NCBI GenBank assembly: GCA_050176605.1
Contig: JBFXHW010000001.1
Coordinates: forward strand, 1 to 48,044
DNA: 48,044 nucleotides
Origin: Sphingobium sp.
GTDB taxonomy: Bacteria; Pseudomonadota; Alphaproteobacteria; Sphingomonadales; Sphingomonadaceae
Direction of reading: 5' to 3'
Both the position numbers and the translations under genes were made by a program. Within the stretch, counting starts at the first letter, position 1, and every line of letters starts with the position of its first letter. Below, one piece after another: positions 9,204 through 20,256 of this stretch. The notes below the pieces were generated by a model. That model was not told where the DNA came from. It saw only the letters and a program-made list of their open reading frames with translations, and did no database searches.

Positions 9204-11165
9204 TCAGAGGACGAGATCGCCCACGCCGGTCAGATGGGCGTTCTGAACATTGATCTGAAAGTCGGCCTTTCCGTCGCCATCGACATCGCCCATTACATAG
9301 GACGAATGAACCCGCGCATTATAGGCGATGACCAGCTCGCCCGCCGTGCCGCTGAAGCTGCTGACGAGGGTGAAGGCATCGTCCGAACCGCCCGCGATCG
9401 CATCGATCCCCGAAACGTCGATCTTGTCGCCTTGCGCCGAGGAGAAGTCCTTGATGAAATCGGCCGAAGCCTTGGTCGAGTCGGCGATATCGGCGAAGAC
9501 GAAGATGTCCGCACCCTTGCCGCCGACGAGGCCATCGCGACCCAGACCACCCTGCAGCACGTCGTTGCCGTCGCCACCCAGAATATAGTCGTCGCCATCG
9601 CCACCGATCAGCGAATCATTGCCCTTGCCGCCGTCGATACGGTCGTTGCCCGCACCGCCGAACACCTGATCGTCGCCATCTCCGGCACGGACATTGTCCT
9701 TCCCCGAACCGGCGTAGATGATGTCGTTGCCGGCATAGCCCATGAAGGTTTCATCGGCATAGCTTCCGCGCAATATGTCATCCAGCTCCGTGCCCGTCGT
9801 GGTCGGATCGTCAACGAACATGGCGAGCAACTGTCCCATTTCCACCGTGGCGGGGTCGCCGGACGAGGCGTGCACCTGCGCATCGAGCAGATAGGCACGG
9901 GTTGTCGCGCTGCCCAGAAGCGAGGTGACGTCGATGATGCCGGAGCTTTCCTCGTCCTGGGTGATGAAGCCGGCCGCGCCCGGACCGAACAGCGCGGGGT
10001 CGAACCCGGCAACCTGGTTCAGCGTATCGCTGGCGATGTCATACTCCCAGACCTTGGCGATGTAGCTCTGGTTGCCCGGATCTTCCTGCAGGATCACCTT
10101 CCCGTTCGCGACCGTGAGGTTGTCGAACATGTGCTGGCCTTCCGATCCGTCGAGCACCGCCGTGATCGTGCCGCCCGCTTCCGGGTTGGTGATGTCGTTG
10201 AACGTCGCCTGATAGAGGCGGCTGTTGCCGTTGAAGCTGTTGGTCGTCGTGAAGTAGAGGACATTGGGATTGTCCGGATCCCATGCGCTGTCTTCCGGGC
10301 GCAGGAAGCTCGTGACCCCCTTCGCCTCGCTGTCGGCGTCGATAGCGGCACCGGTCATGTCCGAAACGTCGCCGGTGGCGCCGATCGCCTCCAGCGTGAA
10401 AGTCCCGCCGACAGCCGTGGCATCGGTCTCGTCGGTCATGCCCGCGACCTTGATGCCATAGAAAAGGCCGTTGGTAAGGCCAGCCATGTCGATGTCGCTG
10501 CCGGTCGACTGTTTGCTGCCGACATAGATGTAGACCTGGCCGTTGGTGCCGTCGTCCGTCGCGGCGACAATCGTCTTGGCCTGGGCGAAGGGGTTGGCCG
10601 TCACATTCTCATAAGCCAGGTTGCCGAGGAACGGCAGCTCATAGGCATTGCCCATATTGGCACCGCTGACGATCGTACCGACCGCGCGGCCTTCCGTGCC
10701 GCTCTCCTCTCCGGTCAGGTAGATGCGGGCGCTGGTGCCGAGGCCCGTTGTCGGATCGTAAAAGGCCGAAGGCGCGGCGAGATCGCCCGAGCAGAAACGG
10801 CTGAACGCGGTCGTGCCCGTTACATAGGTGTCGTTCACATCGTCCCAGAGGTTCAGTGTCTGCATCGCATCGTCGCCCGAAACGACGGCAAGCGTGCTCT
10901 TGTCGATCACCAGCCGGTCAATATAAGCGCCGATCGAACCGTGATCATGCACCGTGCCGACTGCATTGTTGAATTCGTGATTGACGATCACGGAGAGAGT
11001 TCCGTCGCCATTGTCGAACGCGCCAATGCCGTCGGGAATGCCCCCGAACACACCGCTCGTGCTGCCCGGGAGCGTATCGCCCACCGAGATGATCGAGGTG
11101 AAACGGACATTGGGTTCGGCGGCGAGAAGATAGGGCGAAAGGGAAGAAGAAGGTCCTGTGGTCAT
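9204..11165 (-). CDS. PhoX/DUF839-like phosphatase with C-terminal RTX calcium-binding repeats (probable type I secretion substrate)
   Basis: PhoX-like motifs VNHE, RFCSG, TGEE, YENV, RPED, FDNL, QED, ESSGIID; no N-terminal signal; GGxGxD nonapeptides and a serralysin-like tail (DFSSAQGDKIDVSGIDA, GDVDGDGKADF). Confidence 0.7.
   Translation of the reverse strand: MTTGPSSSLSPYLLAAEPNVRFTSIISVGDTLPGSTSGVFGGIPDGIGAFDNGDGTLSVIVNHEFNNAVGTVHDHGSIGAYIDRLVIDKSTLAVVSGDDAMQTLNLWDDVNDTYVTGTTAFSRFCSGDLAAPSAFYDPTTGLGTSARIYLTGEESGTEGRAVGTIVSGANMGNAYELPFLGNLAYENVTANPFAQAKTIVAATDDGTNGQVYIYVGSKQSTGSDIDMAGLTNGLFYGIKVAGMTDETDATAVGGTFTLEAIGATGDVSDMTGAAIDADSEAKGVTSFLRPEDSAWDPDNPNVLYFTTTNSFNGNSRLYQATFNDITNPEAGGTITAVLDGSEGQHMFDNLTVANGKVILQEDPGNQSYIAKVWEYDIASDTLNQVAGFDPALFGPGAAGFITQDEESSGIIDVTSLLGSATTRAYLLDAQVHASSGDPATVEMGQLLAMFVDDPTTTGTELDDILRGSYADETFMGYAGNDIIYAGSGKDNVRAGDGDDQVFGGAGNDRIDGGKGNDSLIGGDGDDYILGGDGNDVLQGGLGRDGLVGGKGADIFVFADIADSTKASADFIKDFSSAQGDKIDVSGIDAIAGGSDDAFTLVSSFSGTAGELVIAYNARVHSSYVMGDVDGDGKADFQINVQNAHLTGVGDLVL
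9495..9794 (-). repeat. RTX (GGxGxDxxx) nonapeptide repeat array
   Basis: About 9 to 11 tandem units, for example GGAGNDRID, GGKGNDSLI, GGDGDDYIL, GGDGNDVLQ, GGLGRDGLV. Confidence 0.9.
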
Positions 11166-14076: not shown

Positions 14077-14415
14077 ATGAGTTTCCTTCGTACGGCATTC
14101 TGGGTAGTCGTCGCCGTCTTTCTGGCGGTGTTTACCGTGACGAACTGGGATGCCCCCCAGCCGAACACGCCCGGCCGTATCGCCATCGCGCTATGGGGCA
14201 CCAATGTCCTGGAGGTGCGCCTTCCGATCCTGATCATCTGCGCCTTTCTGCTGGGCCTGGTGCCGACATGGCTCTGGGGCCGCGCGCGCAAGTGGCAATT
14301 GCAGCGCAAGCTCAACAGCGCCGAGCGGGCGCTGGCAAGCGCGGTCGCCACGCAACAGACCGAAGCGGCGCTGGCCCGGCCGCAATCGCTTCCCGTCGAT
14401 CCGGATCCCGCATGA
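14077..14415 (+). CDS. lapA: LapA (DUF1049)-family membrane protein
   Basis: Two TM segments with F-x3-N and LPILIICAFLLG, then a basic coiled coil; ATGA overlap with pyrF. Confidence 0.7.
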   Translation: MSFLRTAFWVVVAVFLAVFTVTNWDAPQPNTPGRIAIALWGTNVLEVRLPILIICAFLLGLVPTWLWGRARKWQLQRKLNSAERALASAVATQQTEAALARPQSLPVDPDPA

Positions 14416-15086
14416 CCAGACCCATTTATGTGGCGATCGACACGCCGGACCTCGATCGCGCGAAAAGCCTGGCGGCACGCGTTCACAACCATGTCGGTGG
14501 CATCAAGCTTGGCCTCGAGTTCTTCTGCGCCAACGGCCACCATGGCGTGCACGAAATGGCGAAGGTTGGTCTGCCCATCTTCCTCGACCTGAAGCTGCAC
14601 GACATCCCCAATACCGTCGCCAAGGCGGTTCACGCACTGCATGTACTGGAACCAGCGGTCCTCACCGTCCACGCATCCGGCGGCCGCGCGATGCTGGAGG
14701 ATGCGAAGGCCGCGGCCGGGCGCAACACAAAAGTGGTCGCCGTAACCGTGCTTACCAGCCTTGATGCGAGCGATCTCGATGAAACCGGAGTCGCGCGCGG
14801 CGCTGCTGCGCAGGTCGAGCGCCTGGCCGATCTCGCACAGGATGCGGGGCTGGATGGCATCGTCTGCTCAGGCGAGGAGGTCGGCCTCATCCGCGATCGC
14901 TGGCCGGGCGGCTTCCTCGTCGTGCCGGGCGTGCGACCGGCGGGCGGCCGCAAGGGCGACCAGAAGCGCGCGGTGACGCCGCGCGCGGCCATCGACGCGG
15001 GTGCCTCGATCATTGTCATCGGGCGCCCGATCAGCCAGGCGAAGGACCCCGATCTCGCGGCGCGCGAGATCGAAGCCACGCTGTAG
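14412..15086 (+). CDS. pyrF: Orotidine-5'-phosphate decarboxylase
   Basis: FLDLKLHDIPNTV signature, LTVHASGG, VPGVRP, GDQKRAVTP, VIGRPI. Confidence 0.97.
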   Translation: MTRPIYVAIDTPDLDRAKSLAARVHNHVGGIKLGLEFFCANGHHGVHEMAKVGLPIFLDLKLHDIPNTVAKAVHALHVLEPAVLTVHASGGRAMLEDAKAAAGRNTKVVAVTVLTSLDASDLDETGVARGAAAQVERLADLAQDAGLDGIVCSGEEVGLIRDRWPGGFLVVPGVRPAGGRKGDQKRAVTPRAAIDAGASIIVIGRPISQAKDPDLAAREIEATL

Positions 15087-15126: not shown

Positions 15127-15774
15127 ATGTCCCGAATCGCGGTAAAGATCTGCGGGCTGTCGACGCCCGAAACGCTGGAGGCCGCGCTCGCTGCGGGCGC
15201 GAACCATGTCGGCTTCGTCCATTTCGCGAAAAGCCCGCGTCATGTGACCGCAGACCGGCTGGCGCAGCTCGCGGCGCGCGTGCCCGACCATGTCGGAAAG
15301 GTCGCGGTCGTCGTCGATCCGGACGACGCGGCGATAGAAGAGCTTGCGCACGCAGCCAGGATCGATGCGCTGCAACTGCACGGAAACGAGCCGCCGGCAC
15401 GCCTCGCCGCAATCCGCGCCCGCTTTCCGGGCCTGGCGCTGTGGAAGGCGGTTCCGGTAAAGACCCGGGCCGATATCGAAGCGGCCTCGGCCTATCGAAC
15501 CGTCGCCGACCTCGTCCTCTTCGACGCGAAAACGCCGGACAATGCGGCACTGCCCGGCGGCATGGGGCTTCGCTTCGACTGGAAACTGCTTTCGGGCCAC
15601 GATCCCCGCATGCCATGGGGCCTCTCCGGCGGACTCGACCCGGCCAATGTCGCCGAGGCTATCCGCATCACAGGCGCGCCGCTGGCCGATGTCTCGTCCG
15701 GCGTCGAAAGCGCGCCCGGCATCAAGGATGTGGACAAGATCGCCGCTTTCTGCAAAGCGGTTTCGCGATGCTGA
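15127..15774 (+). CDS. trpF: Phosphoribosylanthranilate isomerase
   Basis: VKICGL, SPRHV, QLHGNE, GGMGLRFDW, LSGGL, DVSSGVE. Confidence 0.96.
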   Translation: MSRIAVKICGLSTPETLEAALAAGANHVGFVHFAKSPRHVTADRLAQLAARVPDHVGKVAVVVDPDDAAIEELAHAARIDALQLHGNEPPARLAAIRARFPGLALWKAVPVKTRADIEAASAYRTVADLVLFDAKTPDNAALPGGMGLRFDWKLLSGHDPRMPWGLSGGLDPANVAEAIRITGAPLADVSSGVESAPGIKDVDKIAAFCKAVSRC

Positions 15775-15818
15775 CGCTGGCCCTCCCTTTCGAGCGCAAC
15801 TGGAGACGATGGCGCTGA
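15768..15818 (+). CDS. Putative Trp-containing leader peptide ([16 protein letters not shown]) upstream of trpB
   Basis: ATG overlaps the last 7 nt of trpF; Trp codons at 15801 and 15810; a hairpin (15817-15844) follows. Confidence 0.6.
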
Positions 15819-15876
15819 TTGCCGCCGCCGCACGGCGGGCGATCCCTCCATGCTGTTCCACGAAAGCGAAACGACC

Positions 15877-17100
15877 ATGACCGATATCGTCGCATCTTCC
15901 AATTCATTGCGAACCCAGCCCGATGAAAACGGGCATTTCGGCCAGTTCGGCGGCCGCTACGTCGCCGAAACGCTGATGCCCCTCATCCTCGAACTCGAAC
16001 GCGAATATCGCGCGGCAAAACAGGACCCGGCGTTCGAGGAGGAGTTTCAGTATCTCCTCCGTCAATATGTCGGGCGGCCCAATCCGCTCTATTATGCGCG
16101 GCGCCTGACCGAGGACCTGGGCGGCGCGAAGATCTACCTGAAGCGCGAGGAACTGAACCACACCGGCGCGCACAAGATCAACAACTGCATCGGCCAGATC
16201 CTGCTGGCCAAGCGCATGGGCAAGACGCGCATCATTGCCGAGACCGGCGCGGGCCAGCACGGCGTTGCCACCGCGACCGTGGCGGCATTGTTCAACATCC
16301 CCTGCACCATCTTCATGGGCGCGCTGGATGTGGAACGCCAGCAACCCAATGTGTTCCGCATGAAGCTCCTGGGCGCCGAGGTCCGCCCGGTGGAATCGGG
16401 CGCGAAGACGCTGAAGGATGCGATGAACGAGGCGCTGCGCGACTGGGTCGCGAACGTCCACGATACCTTCTACATCATCGGCACGGTCGCCGGGCCGCAC
16501 CCCTATCCCGAGCTGGTGCGCGATTTCCAGAGCGTGATCGGCAAGGAAACGCGCGAGCAGATACTGGAGGCGGAGGGCCGCCTGCCGGATATGCTGGTGG
16601 CGTGCGTTGGCGGCGGTTCCAACGCCATCGGCATGTTCCACCCCTTCCTTGACGACAGGGATGTAGAGATCGTCGGCGTCGAGGCGGCGGGTTACGGCCT
16701 CGAAACCGGCCAGCATGCGGCGAGCATCGCGGGTGGTTATCCCGGCGTGCTTCACGGCAACAAGACCTTCCTGCTGCAGGACGAGGACGGCCAGATCACA
16801 GAGGCGCACAGCATATCGGCGGGACTCGACTATCCCGGCATCGGCCCGGAGCACGCATGGCTGCACGAGATCGGCCGGGTGCGGTACGAGCCCGTGACGG
16901 ACGACGAGGCGCTTGCTGCGTTCCAGAAGCTCTGCCGCCTCGAAGGTATCATCCCGGCGCTGGAATCCTCTCACGCGCTTGCCGCGCTCGAAAAGCTCGC
17001 GCCGAAAATGGGGAAGGACCAGATCATCGTCGTCAACCTCTCCGGGCGCGGCGACAAGGACATCTTCACCGTCGCGAAGGCGCTGGGGGTGGAGATATGA
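15877..17100 (+). CDS. trpB: Tryptophan synthase beta chain
   Basis: [14 protein letters not shown]-lysine motif, [35 protein letters not shown]. Confidence 0.98.
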
Positions 17101-17909
17101 CCTCCGATCGCATCGCCTCCACCTTTGCAAAATGCCGCGAGGAAGGCCGCGCGGCGCTGGTGTGCTTCATCACCGGCGGCGATCCGACGCCCGGCGATAC
17201 CGGCGCGATGCTCGATGCGCTGGTCGAAGGCGGCGCGGACCTGATCGAACTCGGCATGCCGTTCACCGATCCGATGGCGGATGGCCCGGCGATCCAGAAA
17301 GCCAATCTGCGCAGCCTTGGCGCGGGCACGAGGACTGCCGATCTCCTGTCCATCGCCGCCGATTTTCGCGGTCGGCATCCCGAGACCCCCCTCATCCTGA
17401 TGGGCTATGCCAATCCGATGATCCGCCGCGGGGCCGACTGGTTCGCCACCGCCGCGCGCGATGCGGGCGTGGACGGCGTCATCTGCGTCGACATCCCGAC
17501 CGAAGAGGATGGCGAGCTCGGCCCGGCGCTGCGCGGCGCGGGCGTACACCTCATTCGCCTCGCGACGCCGACGACGGACAAGGCGCGTCTGCCCGCCGTG
17601 CTGCAAGGATCAGGCGGCTTTCTCTACTATGTCTCGGTCGCGGGCATCACCGGCCTGCAACAGGCGGCGCAGGCCAGCATCGAAACCGCCGTGGCGCATC
17701 TCAAATCCGGGACGGACCTGCCCGTTGCCGTCGGCTTCGGCGTCCGCACACCCGAGCAGGCAGCCGCGATCGGGCGCGTTGCGGACGGGGTTGTCGTCGG
17801 CTCCGCCATCGTCGATATTGTCGGCCAATACGGAGCAGAAGCGGCGCCCCATGTGCGCGATTATGTCGCCTCGCTGCACGCCGCGCTCACACAGAAGGAA
17901 AACGCCTGA
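17097..17909 (+). CDS. trpA: Tryptophan synthase alpha chain
   Basis: [42 protein letters not shown]; ATGA overlap with trpB. Confidence 0.98.
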
Positions 17910-18763
17910 TGAGCTGGCTCAACCGCGTTCGCAAGGTCATACCGTTCATGGCGAAAAAGGAGCAGAGCCAAGACAATCTCTGGCACAAATGCTCCGGCTG
18001 CGGACAGATGGTGTTCACCCGGGAATGGGAAGAAAATCTCGCGGTCTGCCCCAAATGCGATCATCATGGCCGCATCGGGCCGACGGAACGCTTTGCCCAG
18101 ATGCTCGACGAAGGCAGCATGAAAACGCTTGCCGTCCCCGCGGTGCGGGAAGACCCGCTCAAGTTTCGCGACACGAAGAAATATAGCGACCGTATCCGCG
18201 CCGCGCGGGCGGCGACGGGCGATCAGGACGCGCTGATCAACGCCAGCGGCAAGATCGACGGAAAGCCGGTCGTCATCGGTGTGCAGAATTTCGCCTATAT
18301 GGGCGGGTCGATGGGGGTGGCCGTGGGCGCCGCCTTCGTTCAGGGGGTCGAAGAAGCGGTGAAGCGCAAATGCCCCTATATCATCTTCACCGCGGCGGGC
18401 GGCGCGCGCATGCAGGAGGGCATACTCTCGCTGATGCAGATGCCGCGTGCGACGGTCGCAATCCAGAAGCTTCACGATGCCGGCCTGCCCTATGTGGTCG
18501 TGCTGACCGATCCGACCACTGGCGGCGTGACCGCCAGCTATGCCATGCTGGGCGACGTGCAGATCGCAGAGCCCAATGCGCTCATCGGCTTCGCGGGCCA
18601 GCGCGTGATCGAGAACACGATCCGCGAAAAGCTGCCCGAGGGATTCCAGCGTGCCGAATATCTGCTCGCGCACGGCATGATCGACATGGTCGTGCACCGC
18701 AGGGAGATGAAGGAGCGCGTCGCGCAGGTCGTCTCCTATCTCATGCCGAAAAAGGCTGCCTGA
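17909..18763 (+). CDS. accD: Acetyl-CoA carboxylase carboxyltransferase beta subunit
   Basis: CxxC...CxxC zinc finger, [29 protein letters not shown]. Confidence 0.97.
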
Positions 18764-18767
18764 ACTA

Positions 18768-18914
18768 TAGGGCCTGTGAGGATTTAGTTCAGGTGGAGAC
18801 GAAAATGGTGGATTTCGAGAACCGGAGCGCAGTGGACTTGAAGGTACATGAGCACCGGCAGCGCAGAAAGACGCCATTTGCAGGCCCGCATGGGCTGAAT
18901 CCCCGCAGGCCCTA
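18768..18914. mobile_element. MITE-like palindromic element (147 bp, 24-bp imperfect terminal inverted repeats, TA ends)
   Basis: Left end TAGGGCCTGTGAGGATTTAGTTCA versus reverse complement of right end TAGGGCCTGCGGGGATTCAGCCCA (19/24); inner inverted repeat AAATGGTG/CGCCATTT; internal direct repeat ACCGG(C)AGCGCAG. Confidence 0.75.
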
Positions 18915-18933
18915 GACTGATCGGACAGCAACG

Positions 18934-20256
18934 TTGGCAGACCACGCGGTATCAGATCATCCCGCCGTGCAGGCGCAGCTCGACCGGCTGGCGAGCCTGT
19001 CACCCGGTGCGGATGTGCTCGGGCTGGGCCGCATCGTCCGGCTGCTCGCCAATATCGGCGATCCGCACCGCGCGCTGCCTCCCGTCTTTCATGTCGCCGG
19101 AACCAACGGCAAGGGGTCGACCTGTGCCTTCCTGCGCGCCGCGCTCCAGGCGGAGGGCAAGAGCGTTCATGTCTACACCTCGCCGCATCTGGTCCGGTTC
19201 AATGAACGCGTCCGTCTGGGCGACACGCTGATCGACGACGAACGGCTGGCGGCGTATCTGGAGCGCGTGCTGGATGCCGCCGGTGACATCGGCCCGAGCT
19301 TTTTCGAGGCGACCACGGCGGCCGCTTTCCTCGCCTTTGCCGAAAACCCGGCCGACGCCTGCATCGTCGAGGTTGGACTGGGCGGGCGGCTGGACGCCAC
19401 CAATGTCATTCCCGCCCCGGCCGTCACCGGCATCGCGCAACTGGGCATGGACCATGAAGCGTTTCTGGGCAGCGAGATGAAGCAGATTGCCGCGGAAAAG
19501 GCGGGGATAGCCAAGCCCGGCGTGCCGCTCGTCACGCTCGGCTATGAGCCCGCCATTGCCGGGGTCATAGCGGAACGGGCTGCGACGGCCAACGCGCGCT
19601 GGCTGGCGATGGGTGCGGCATGGGATGCCGCCGTCTATCGCGAGCGGCTGCACTATCGCGACGAGGCCGGACGCATCGACATGCCGCTGCCGCGCCTTGC
19701 CGGGCCGCATCAGCCGATGAACCTGGCGCTGGCCGTCGCCATGCTGCGGCACCAGAAAATCGTGCCGGTGAGCGACGCGGCGATAAAGGCCGCGCCGCTC
19801 TGGGCGAGCTGGCCCGCGCGGCTCCAGCGCCTCACCCGCGGTCCGCTGGTCGGACGGCTGGGCGGCGGAGCGCGTACCATCTGGCTCGACGGCGGGCACA
19901 ATCCGGCGGCGGGAGAGATGCTCGGCAGTTTCTTCACGCCGGAGCGGCTGAGCGGCGAGAAGCTCACGCTGCTGATCGGGATGCTGGCGAACAAGGATGT
20001 GGCGGGCTTTCTGGAGCCCCTGCGCGGCGCGATCGGCGCCATTCACAGCGTCCCGGTCGAGGGGCATGCCCATCACGGCGCAGACGTCTTTGCTGTGCTA
20101 GCGGAGCAATGGGGCATCGCTCATGTGCCGCACCCCACAATAGAAGCGGCGGCGGACGGGATCATGGCGGACGGCGCGACCCGTCCGCTGCTGATCACCG
20201 GTTCGCTCTATCTGGCGGGCGAGATACTCAAGGCCAATGATCAGCCGCCCGACTAG
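18934..20256 (+). CDS. folC: Bifunctional dihydrofolate/folylpolyglutamate synthase
   Basis: HVAGTNGKGS P-loop, YTSPHL, EVGLGGRLDATN, LDGGHN, ITGSLYLAGE; TTG start. Confidence 0.96.
   Translation: MADHAVSDHPAVQAQLDRLASLSPGADVLGLGRIVRLLANIGDPHRALPPVFHVAGTNGKGSTCAFLRAALQAEGKSVHVYTSPHLVRFNERVRLGDTLIDDERLAAYLERVLDAAGDIGPSFFEATTAAAFLAFAENPADACIVEVGLGGRLDATNVIPAPAVTGIAQLGMDHEAFLGSEMKQIAAEKAGIAKPGVPLVTLGYEPAIAGVIAERAATANARWLAMGAAWDAAVYRERLHYRDEAGRIDMPLPRLAGPHQPMNLALAVAMLRHQKIVPVSDAAIKAAPLWASWPARLQRLTRGPLVGRLGGGARTIWLDGGHNPAAGEMLGSFFTPERLSGEKLTLLIGMLANKDVAGFLEPLRGAIGAIHSVPVEGHAHHGADVFAVLAEQWGIAHVPHPTIEAAADGIMADGATRPLLITGSLYLAGEILKANDQPPD

Follow-up and report, generated by a model that had tools for sequence, protein, structure and literature searches.

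A candidate leader ORF with one conserved Trp codon between trpF and trpB of Sphingobium, behind a predicted promoter embedded in trpF

In classical trpL attenuators (E. coli trpL; S. meliloti trpL/rnTrpL, PMC6614838) a short ORF with tandem Trp codons near its end lies upstream of Trp biosynthesis genes, the control codons take part in alternative pairings, and the terminator has a U-tract. In S. meliloti, by the account in PMC6614838, only trpE(G) has such a leader, and trpFBA responds to Trp by a route left unexplained there. The mycobacterial polycysteine attenuators (10.1101/834739) are leaderless or near-leaderless first ORFs in which cognate codons report charged tRNA and an intrinsic terminator is absent; the case worked out in that source combines runs of Cys codons with a duplex that sequesters the Shine-Dalgarno (SD) sequence. 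In tnaC, speFL, mgtL, corL and cruR, as treated in PMC12360218, ribosome position sets the access of Rho to a leader without a U-tract, and tnaC and speFL sense a free metabolite via a conserved nascent peptide stalled at the stop codon. Two RNA motifs, judged by their descriptions, do not match the element treated below: SRC-39-1, known as 'trpB motif' (PMC11109978), sometimes precedes trpB, but belongs to Firmicutes and Fusobacteria and has an intrinsic terminator, and the odc1 uORF motif (PMC8632094) is alphaproteobacterial, but has a fixed 11-aa peptide, a sequestered ribosome-binding site (RBS) and a pseudoknot.

The element described here lies between trpF and trpB in a window of 48,044 nt (the whole stretch of DNA that was analysed). 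With classical trpL it shares a short ORF with a Trp codon near its end, a position upstream of Trp biosynthesis genes and, possibly, alternative pairings involving the control codon; it differs in having one conserved Trp codon and no U-tract, in preceding trpBA rather than trpE, and in having its predicted promoter and its start codon within trpF. A near-leaderless first ORF, a cognate codon that reports charged tRNA and the lack of an intrinsic terminator would be shared with the mycobacterial attenuators, whereas Cys runs are replaced by one Trp codon and no SD-sequestering helix was detected. Control of Rho access by ribosome position would likewise be shared with the tnaC group, but the peptide is variable. 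The rare Arg codons of speFL offer a parallel to this leader. The element thus appears to work like a leader-peptide attenuator that stands outside the classical trpL family by codon number and terminator. We found no description of it in the open-access literature searched, including passages of PMC8632094 and PMC11109978. Sphingomonadaceae are important degraders of aromatic compounds whose route of Trp regulation we likewise did not find described there, and the leader is a precise candidate for such control that is amenable to mutation.

Profile matches place pyrF, trpF, trpB, trpA, accD and folC in this order on the + strand of the window, with the following features (members are the leader-bearing loci compared below).

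14412-15086, + strand: pyrF, upstream gene of a long operon (NCBIfam NF001273/TIGR01740, above cut-off)
15127-15774, + strand: trpF (NF002295, above cut-off); its final codons also contain the start codon of the leader and, as predicted, a promoter for trpB
15731-15736, + strand: predicted -35 element TGGACA; 52 of 54 members have it at the same distance from the leader ATG
15754-15759, + strand: predicted -10 element AAAGCG, 17 nt after the -35 and 8 nt before the leader ATG
15765-15768, + strand: predicted transcription start, 0-3 nt before the leader AUG (15766 with N. aromaticivorans spacing)
15768-15818, + strand: leader ORF, 16 codons and a stop; frame kept in 54/54 members over 8 length classes and in 5/5 later members
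15794-15800, + strand: strand B, predicted to pair with the Trp-codon strand; consensus GCGCATC, here GCGCAAC, columns conserved in 41-48 of 54
15801-15803, + strand: first Trp codon, nearly window-specific
15807-15818, + strand: invariant core CGA TGG CGC TGA (Arg-Trp-Arg-stop), strand C, with the putative sensing codon TGG at 15810-15812
15817-15844, + strand: hairpin D, after the stop; consensus UCGCUU-loop-AAGCGA, with covariation
15843-15855, + strand: C-rich strand E, which can zip onto the Trp codon and lengthen the hairpin; ends at a pause-like Y/R (15854/15855), 12 nt past the stem
15862-15871, + strand: weak purine-rich ribosome-binding region of trpB (GAAAG/GAGA)
15877-17100, + strand: trpB (TIGR00263, above cut-off)
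17097-17909, + strand: trpA, overlapping trpB (TIGR00262)
17909-18763, + strand: accD (TIGR00515)
18934-20256, + strand: folC (TIGR01499)

We infer that the window belongs to Sphingobium, because named Sphingobium records bear the element and sit among the same-genus rows of a TrpB tree. Relatives were picked by their trpF match alone, so that the sample is independent of the leader. Of 55 same-genus genomes with such a match 48 were examined, and 39 carry the leader in a spacer of 80-125 nt, with the ORF starting on the trpF stop and with CGA TGG present at every one of the 39 loci; the other nine comprise eight direct ATGA joins of trpF to trpB and one short spacer without a Trp ORF. Elsewhere in the family the leader occurs at 1 of 88 loci examined in other genera (159 genomes matched), in 7 of 25 in a second genus reached from that one locus, at 1 of 20 loci in the genus to which a record with the label Altererythrobacter belongs, and in two Sphingomonas-labelled records. 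None of 23 trpF-trpB junctions from other alphaproteobacterial families has it (29 loci of 87 matched, six of them without trpF), so the element would not explain the trpFBA response of S. meliloti. A covariance model gives a single match in the window's own genome (67 bits, next best 18.5), by which paralogous copies of the element were rejected; across 151 family genomes it scores G053, G111 and G198 at 68-70 bits and the rest at no more than 28. Trp-containing ORFs that begin on the trpF stop number only two among 133 non-member loci, both of them unrelated, and among the matches listed in a pattern scan of named genomes 18 of 119 are trpF-trpB junctions, the remainder being mostly chance.

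On the TrpB tree (141 rows, built by a quick method and with weak support) the distribution of the leader is patchy, losses being nested within groups of carriers; the tree scores the duplicate leader loci L024 and L126 as lacking it, so its 12 changes are an overcount. Because leader and trpB both start with ATGA(C), a single deletion would be expected to restore direct trpF-trpB coupling. At one locus (L032) a 39-codon ORF (…SWRP…) directly after the trpF stop fills a 105-nt spacer and stops 2 nt before trpB; it may be a leader that has decayed, or a variant of one. Across several genera this junction has received REP-like hairpin elements (…CCTGAGCTTGTCGAAGG…CTTCGACAAGCTCAG…), inserted behind the embedded promoter in the trpF-trpB spacers of L071, L078, L084, L086, L104, L113, L351 and L374.

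Sequence comparison was made on 54 distinct members after removal of six duplicates; the members are kin, and counts among them overstate independence. The pattern used to collect them contained CGATGG, and the 48-genome sample picked by trpF alone held no leader with another codon at that place. The original prediction had described a leader peptide starting at ATG 15768 and ending TGG AGA CGA TGG CGC TGA, with two Trp codons around rare Arg codons. This ORF is present, its ATG (15768-15770) overlapping the trpF stop (trpF ends at 15774); AGA and CGA are indeed rare, with 2 and 28 occurrences among the 1014 Arg codons of trpB at member loci, and a Trp-containing leader ORF before trpBA is conserved. 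Of the two Trp codons only the last (15810-15812) is conserved, the first occurring in 2 of 54 members counting the window (1 of the 53 others). Extra TGG accounts for 2 of 534 other leader codons, both at the first-Trp position, and was gained in two separate TrpB clades (L001, L224). The sensor is likely one Trp codon, not two, and the AGA codon and the predicted TGGAG:CTCCA pairing appear essentially window-specific; the complementarity (15801-15805 with 15846-15850) exists in the window but was not found conserved. The alignment of trpF-trpB spacers that had been proposed as a check, made here over Sphingobium-type relatives, thus returned covariation of the stem and one conserved Trp codon, but not the second.

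The distance from the trpF stop to CGA takes the values 17, 26, 29, 32, 35, 38, 47 and 50 nt, all of them 2 modulo 3, while the distance from the leader stop to trpB spans all three frames. In-frame stops before the leader end are found in 0 of 54 members versus 10.8 expected by shuffling; the other two frames hold stops in 22 and only 2 of 54, so that the absence of stops is a weak test by itself. The leader ATG is retained though the overlapping trpF codons vary (GCA/CAA/CCA/CGA/TCA/AGA, each followed by TGY) and despite a bias against A at third positions (54 of 622 are A); in L019 the overlap reads CTA TGG TAA, another overlap type. With the frame kept across eight lengths, the ATG kept and the peptide variable, the leader behaves as a translated ORF, and we regard its translation as very probable.

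The original prediction had treated the leader as intra-operonic and coupled to trpF. Its ATG does sit on the trpF stop, but a promoter predicted inside trpF would make it the first ORF of a transcript of its own. The family-wide trpF end reads TGGACA-N17-NAA, in which K, Q, N or E is encoded by rare codons that keep AA; AAA makes up only 121 of 913 Lys codons in trpB. Among the 54 members the -10 reads AAAGCG in 41, AATGCG in 9, CAAGCG in 2, and GAAGCG and GATGCG in 1 each. The strict motif, with a background of 1.7e-4 per position, is found in the trpF end of 43 of 54 loci with the leader and of 49 of 72 where trpF and trpB are joined directly; in all 43 of the former its distance to the leader ATG downstream is exactly 8 nt, and the other 11 have mostly AATGCG at the same offset. 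Where trpB is separated from trpF, the motif stands in non-coding DNA 6-10 nt before trpB at 7 of 17 spacer loci and 3 of 4 inserted-gene loci, and is absent from the trpF end of these ten (10/10); seven other spacer loci retain it in trpF, and 23 joined loci do not have it. Motif sites are at 15731-15759 in the window and in the trpF ends of L008-L137; others are in the spacers of L049, L059, L064, L076, L083, L088, L110, L339 and L348 and before trpB in L087, L101 and L115. An opposite-strand gene of about 200 codons lies between trpF and trpB in L087, L101, L115, L340, L342-L344 and L347.

An E. coli-type promoter scan of the window found no promoter, as expected of a -10 without T at -7. 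The Z. mobilis start-site table (PMC7566282) lists no start in the interval that we take to contain trpB. The supplements of PMC7703639 have no entry for the gene. In N. aromaticivorans, a mapped trpB start site has TGGACA, 17 nt, CAAGCG and 7 nt to +1 (PMC8407463 supplement, which lists the gene neighbouring trpB as a porin-family protein); a mapped start site of Caulobacter trpB is in the same supplement. In Caulobacter, short 5' extensions reduce but permit leaderless initiation (PMC8459731). Given a motif at a fixed 8 nt and the mapped homologous promoter of N. aromaticivorans, the element is probably the near-leaderless 5' leader of an internal trpBA transcript, secondarily coupled to trpF. 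The embedded trpB promoter would be a family-wide finding by itself, and implies a near-leaderless trpB mRNA in genomes without the leader.

The fold of the window region alone does not exceed chance (z = -0.32, equalled in 74 of 200 shuffles); the evidence for RNA structure beyond chance is comparative. The hairpin predicted at 15817-15844 is present, and its six core pairs are paired in 45-54 of 54 members, with eight cells in which both sides have changed; none of 500 shuffles is as good, slid controls are 30-38% paired, and cognate strands form better duplexes than non-cognate ones (p<0.001). The Trp-codon strand C has two potential partners. Upstream, the B:C duplex reaches -10.3 versus -6.8 kcal/mol with B shuffled; strand C is invariant, so that covariation of B:C cannot show. 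Downstream, the long C:E hairpin beats shuffled E in 46 of 54 members (14 of 17 thinned) by about 2 kcal/mol, reaches p<=0.1 singly in only 15 of 54, and gives no cognate-versus-non-cognate signal (p 0.2-0.6). In folding, the GG of the Trp codon is bistable, its mean pairing being 0.29 to the upstream side and 0.58 to strand E, and a switch between B:C and C:E is plausible.

Beyond the hairpin, a pattern of G at -10 and Y/R 12 nt past the stem occurs in 23 of 54 members (15 of 32 and 5 of 17 thinned), the best shuffled offsets giving 5.1, 3.5 and 2.3. The 11-12 nt spacing is known from hairpin-stabilised pauses (PMC12288461); the G at -10 is absent from the window and would be equally explained by pairing with the Trp strand. 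As had been predicted, there is no U-tract: we found no terminator-like stem with a T run in the window, and the members average 3 U in 8 nt. C exceeds G by a modest margin: the mean skew of 0.10 falls at about the 80th percentile among upstream regions of the own genome and is positive in 49 of 54 members, with C 274:G 115 in the hairpin loop and C 366:G 121 after the stem across members. A search against Rfam returned three matches of 12-13 bits, all far below gathering scores and none a Trp leader.

From these parts we propose, with about even confidence for and against, that the leader senses charged tRNA-Trp at its single conserved Trp codon and gates trpBA by premature, Rho-assisted termination. 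RNA polymerase would start on the leader AUG or no more than 3 nt away from it, giving near-leaderless translation; on the long transcript, the leader could also be translated by re-initiation from trpF. The rare CGA codon would slow the ribosome right before UGG, and polymerase would pause about 12 nt beyond hairpin D. With Trp plentiful, the ribosome would reach the UGA two codons on and leave, upon which the Trp-codon strand would zip onto strand E to form a long hairpin with a pyrimidine tail, and Rho could load on the naked, C-rich leader of about 100 nt and end the transcript before trpB. With Trp scarce, a ribosome held on UGG would cover strand C, block the long stem and divide the leader into pieces too short for Rho, so that polymerase continues and translation of trpB begins at the weak ribosome-binding site in front of it. 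For scale, rut sites are put at 60-90 nt (PMC12360218) and the reach of a stalled ribosome at about 12 nt beyond the translated codon (PMC4833913), and such a ribosome may reach some way into hairpin D. Against the mechanism count that a single Trp codon would sense weakly beside known leaders with tandem ones, and that the leader is missing from 9 of 48 genomes in the genus and from 87 of 88 loci in other genera. The parts of the proposal are not equally firm. That the leader responds to Trp seems rather likely, and about two thirds of that likelihood falls to termination as the output; Rho-dependent control is the favoured option, and an unproven one.

The strongest competitor keeps the same Trp sensor and lets the stalled ribosome alter initiation at trpB or the stability of the mRNA, the long hairpin hiding a pyrimidine-rich standby region 20-30 nt before trpB or making a nuclease site; we consider it unlikely, if well short of negligible. 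The near-leaderless layout resembles the mycobacterial polycysteine case (10.1101/834739), a U-tract is absent, and from the end of the long hairpin to the trpB ATG there are about 20-25 nt. The absence of a clear SD before trpB, as first described, stands only insofar as the site is weak: most members have purine-rich GAAAG/GAGA 9-15 nt upstream (15862-15866 in the window). Pairing of strand B with this region is marginal (p 0.02-0.10, uncorrected). Against such an output, no anti-SD covariation was detected for the leader 5' part or for strands C, D and E, and the energy needed to open the trpB start is nearly unchanged by ribosome position (7.0 kcal/mol free, 6.3 stalled, 6.1 at the stop; 6 versus 17 of 54 members favour either state). 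Translational control by occlusion of the SD, which the original prediction had entertained, thus finds no support in folding or covariation, and an SD occlusion switch was rejected: footprint folding had no consistent direction, and hand-spotted anti-SD pairings did no better than non-cognate or shuffled controls (p=0.53, 0.32, 0.05 for the leader 5' part with the RBS).

Termination at a Trp-sensing leader is also to be weighed against an arrest peptide or a general sensor of translation stress, in which R-W-R would stall the ribosome as a '+X+' sequence in response to macrolides, indole, free Trp or slow peptidyl transfer, and which we judge improbable. RWR fits the Arg/Lys-X-Arg/Lys motif of macrolide arrest (PMC10314930), the commonest peptide end is R-I-G/E-x-R-W-R (R in 42 and I in 35 of 54), and there is a single Trp codon only. 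The peptide, however, varies widely in sequence and in length (10-21 residues), and what stays constant is CGA TGG together with the stop and the hairpin's distance from it; leaders end CGA-TGG-CGN-TGA with one exception that has CCC (RWP). A conserved sequence or length of the TnaC/SpeFL or +X+ type is therefore absent, and only the RWR tail fits +X+. The Arg is held by its rare codon CGA, and the codons for 'RI' are the ones that pair with the Trp strand, so that their conservation would be explained by RNA; moreover, the genes downstream make Trp.

More doubtful still is a non-translated RNA or DNA motif, such as a protein-binding site or a stabilising or processing hairpin, with an incidental ORF. 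Conservation does act at the nucleotide level, wobble positions included, the window fold alone is unremarkable, and one other frame is nearly free of stops; but eight length classes share one frame while the post-stop distance takes all three, the ATG is kept in spite of trpF codon bias, at a constant 8 nt downstream of the promoter motif, and the third core codon varies (CGC/CGT/CGG/CCC). Least probable of all is a relay in which ribosomes from the UGA restart at the ATG in CG-ATG-G (15809) and follow a frame beginning MALIA through the hairpin to the trpB ATGA, which would tie trpB to a finished leader, since what the relay would account for, namely the invariant A of CGA, a frame ending on or near the trpB start in most members and a spacing biased modulo 3 (36:14:4; thinned 19:10:3 and 9:7:1), is set against 10 of 54 members that stop this frame 20-47 nt early and 2 of 54 that fuse it to TrpB, stops near trpB that belong to the RBS/ATGA sequence in any frame, and a rise of TrpB under ample Trp, opposite in sign to what suits a biosynthetic gene. 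The modulo-3 bias itself is real. In the window the MALIA frame (15809-15880) ends on the trpB ATGA, as it does in 24 of 54 members. Read-through of the leader stop into TrpB was rejected (14 of 54 leaders are in frame with trpB, several of them with more stops), as was frameshifting at CGA-TGG, where by eye tRNA-Arg has no slippery re-pairing.

Should the leader act as proposed, one codon would suffice for amino-acid sensing, leaderless-sORF attenuation would extend from mycobacteria to Alphaproteobacteria, and control would be exerted on the pathway's final step, at which indole may come in. Elements of this kind are missed by searches that look in intergenic regions or for runs of cognate codons. 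A wider proposal, which we offer tentatively and with more doubt than confidence, is that sphingomonads shifted their only ribosome-read Trp sensor from trpE to trpBA in minimal form: a promoter and start codon in the trpF end, a single Trp codon that is both sensing codon and switching strand, and a hairpin-stabilised pause leading to termination where no U-tract exists. A single step between two ATGAC words would add or remove the whole module, which would provide natural with/without pairs inside one genus. In 11 of 11 genomes checked, trpE is without a leader and directly 3' of a ppiD-like gene, and in the own genome trpG, trpD and trpC are close behind trpE. No TrpR was found in that genome (assembly 90.7% complete); a C-terminal fragment of rho is present at a contig end.

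At L288 (1417-1420, G000:C374) and L290, trpE overlaps the ppiD-like gene by GTGA, and trpE-trpG-trpD-trpC-moaC form a single block in which a leader is absent. Downstream in the window, accD and folC (17909-20256) are possibly co-regulated with trpBA. A small membrane-protein ORF at 14079-14415, putatively LapA-like, overlaps the pyrF start (ATGA). Further upstream, on the - strand (9204-11165), a 653-aa ORF has C-terminal glycine-aspartate nonapeptide repeats by eye and likely encodes a secreted RTX-repeat protein with a phosphatase-like N-terminal part.
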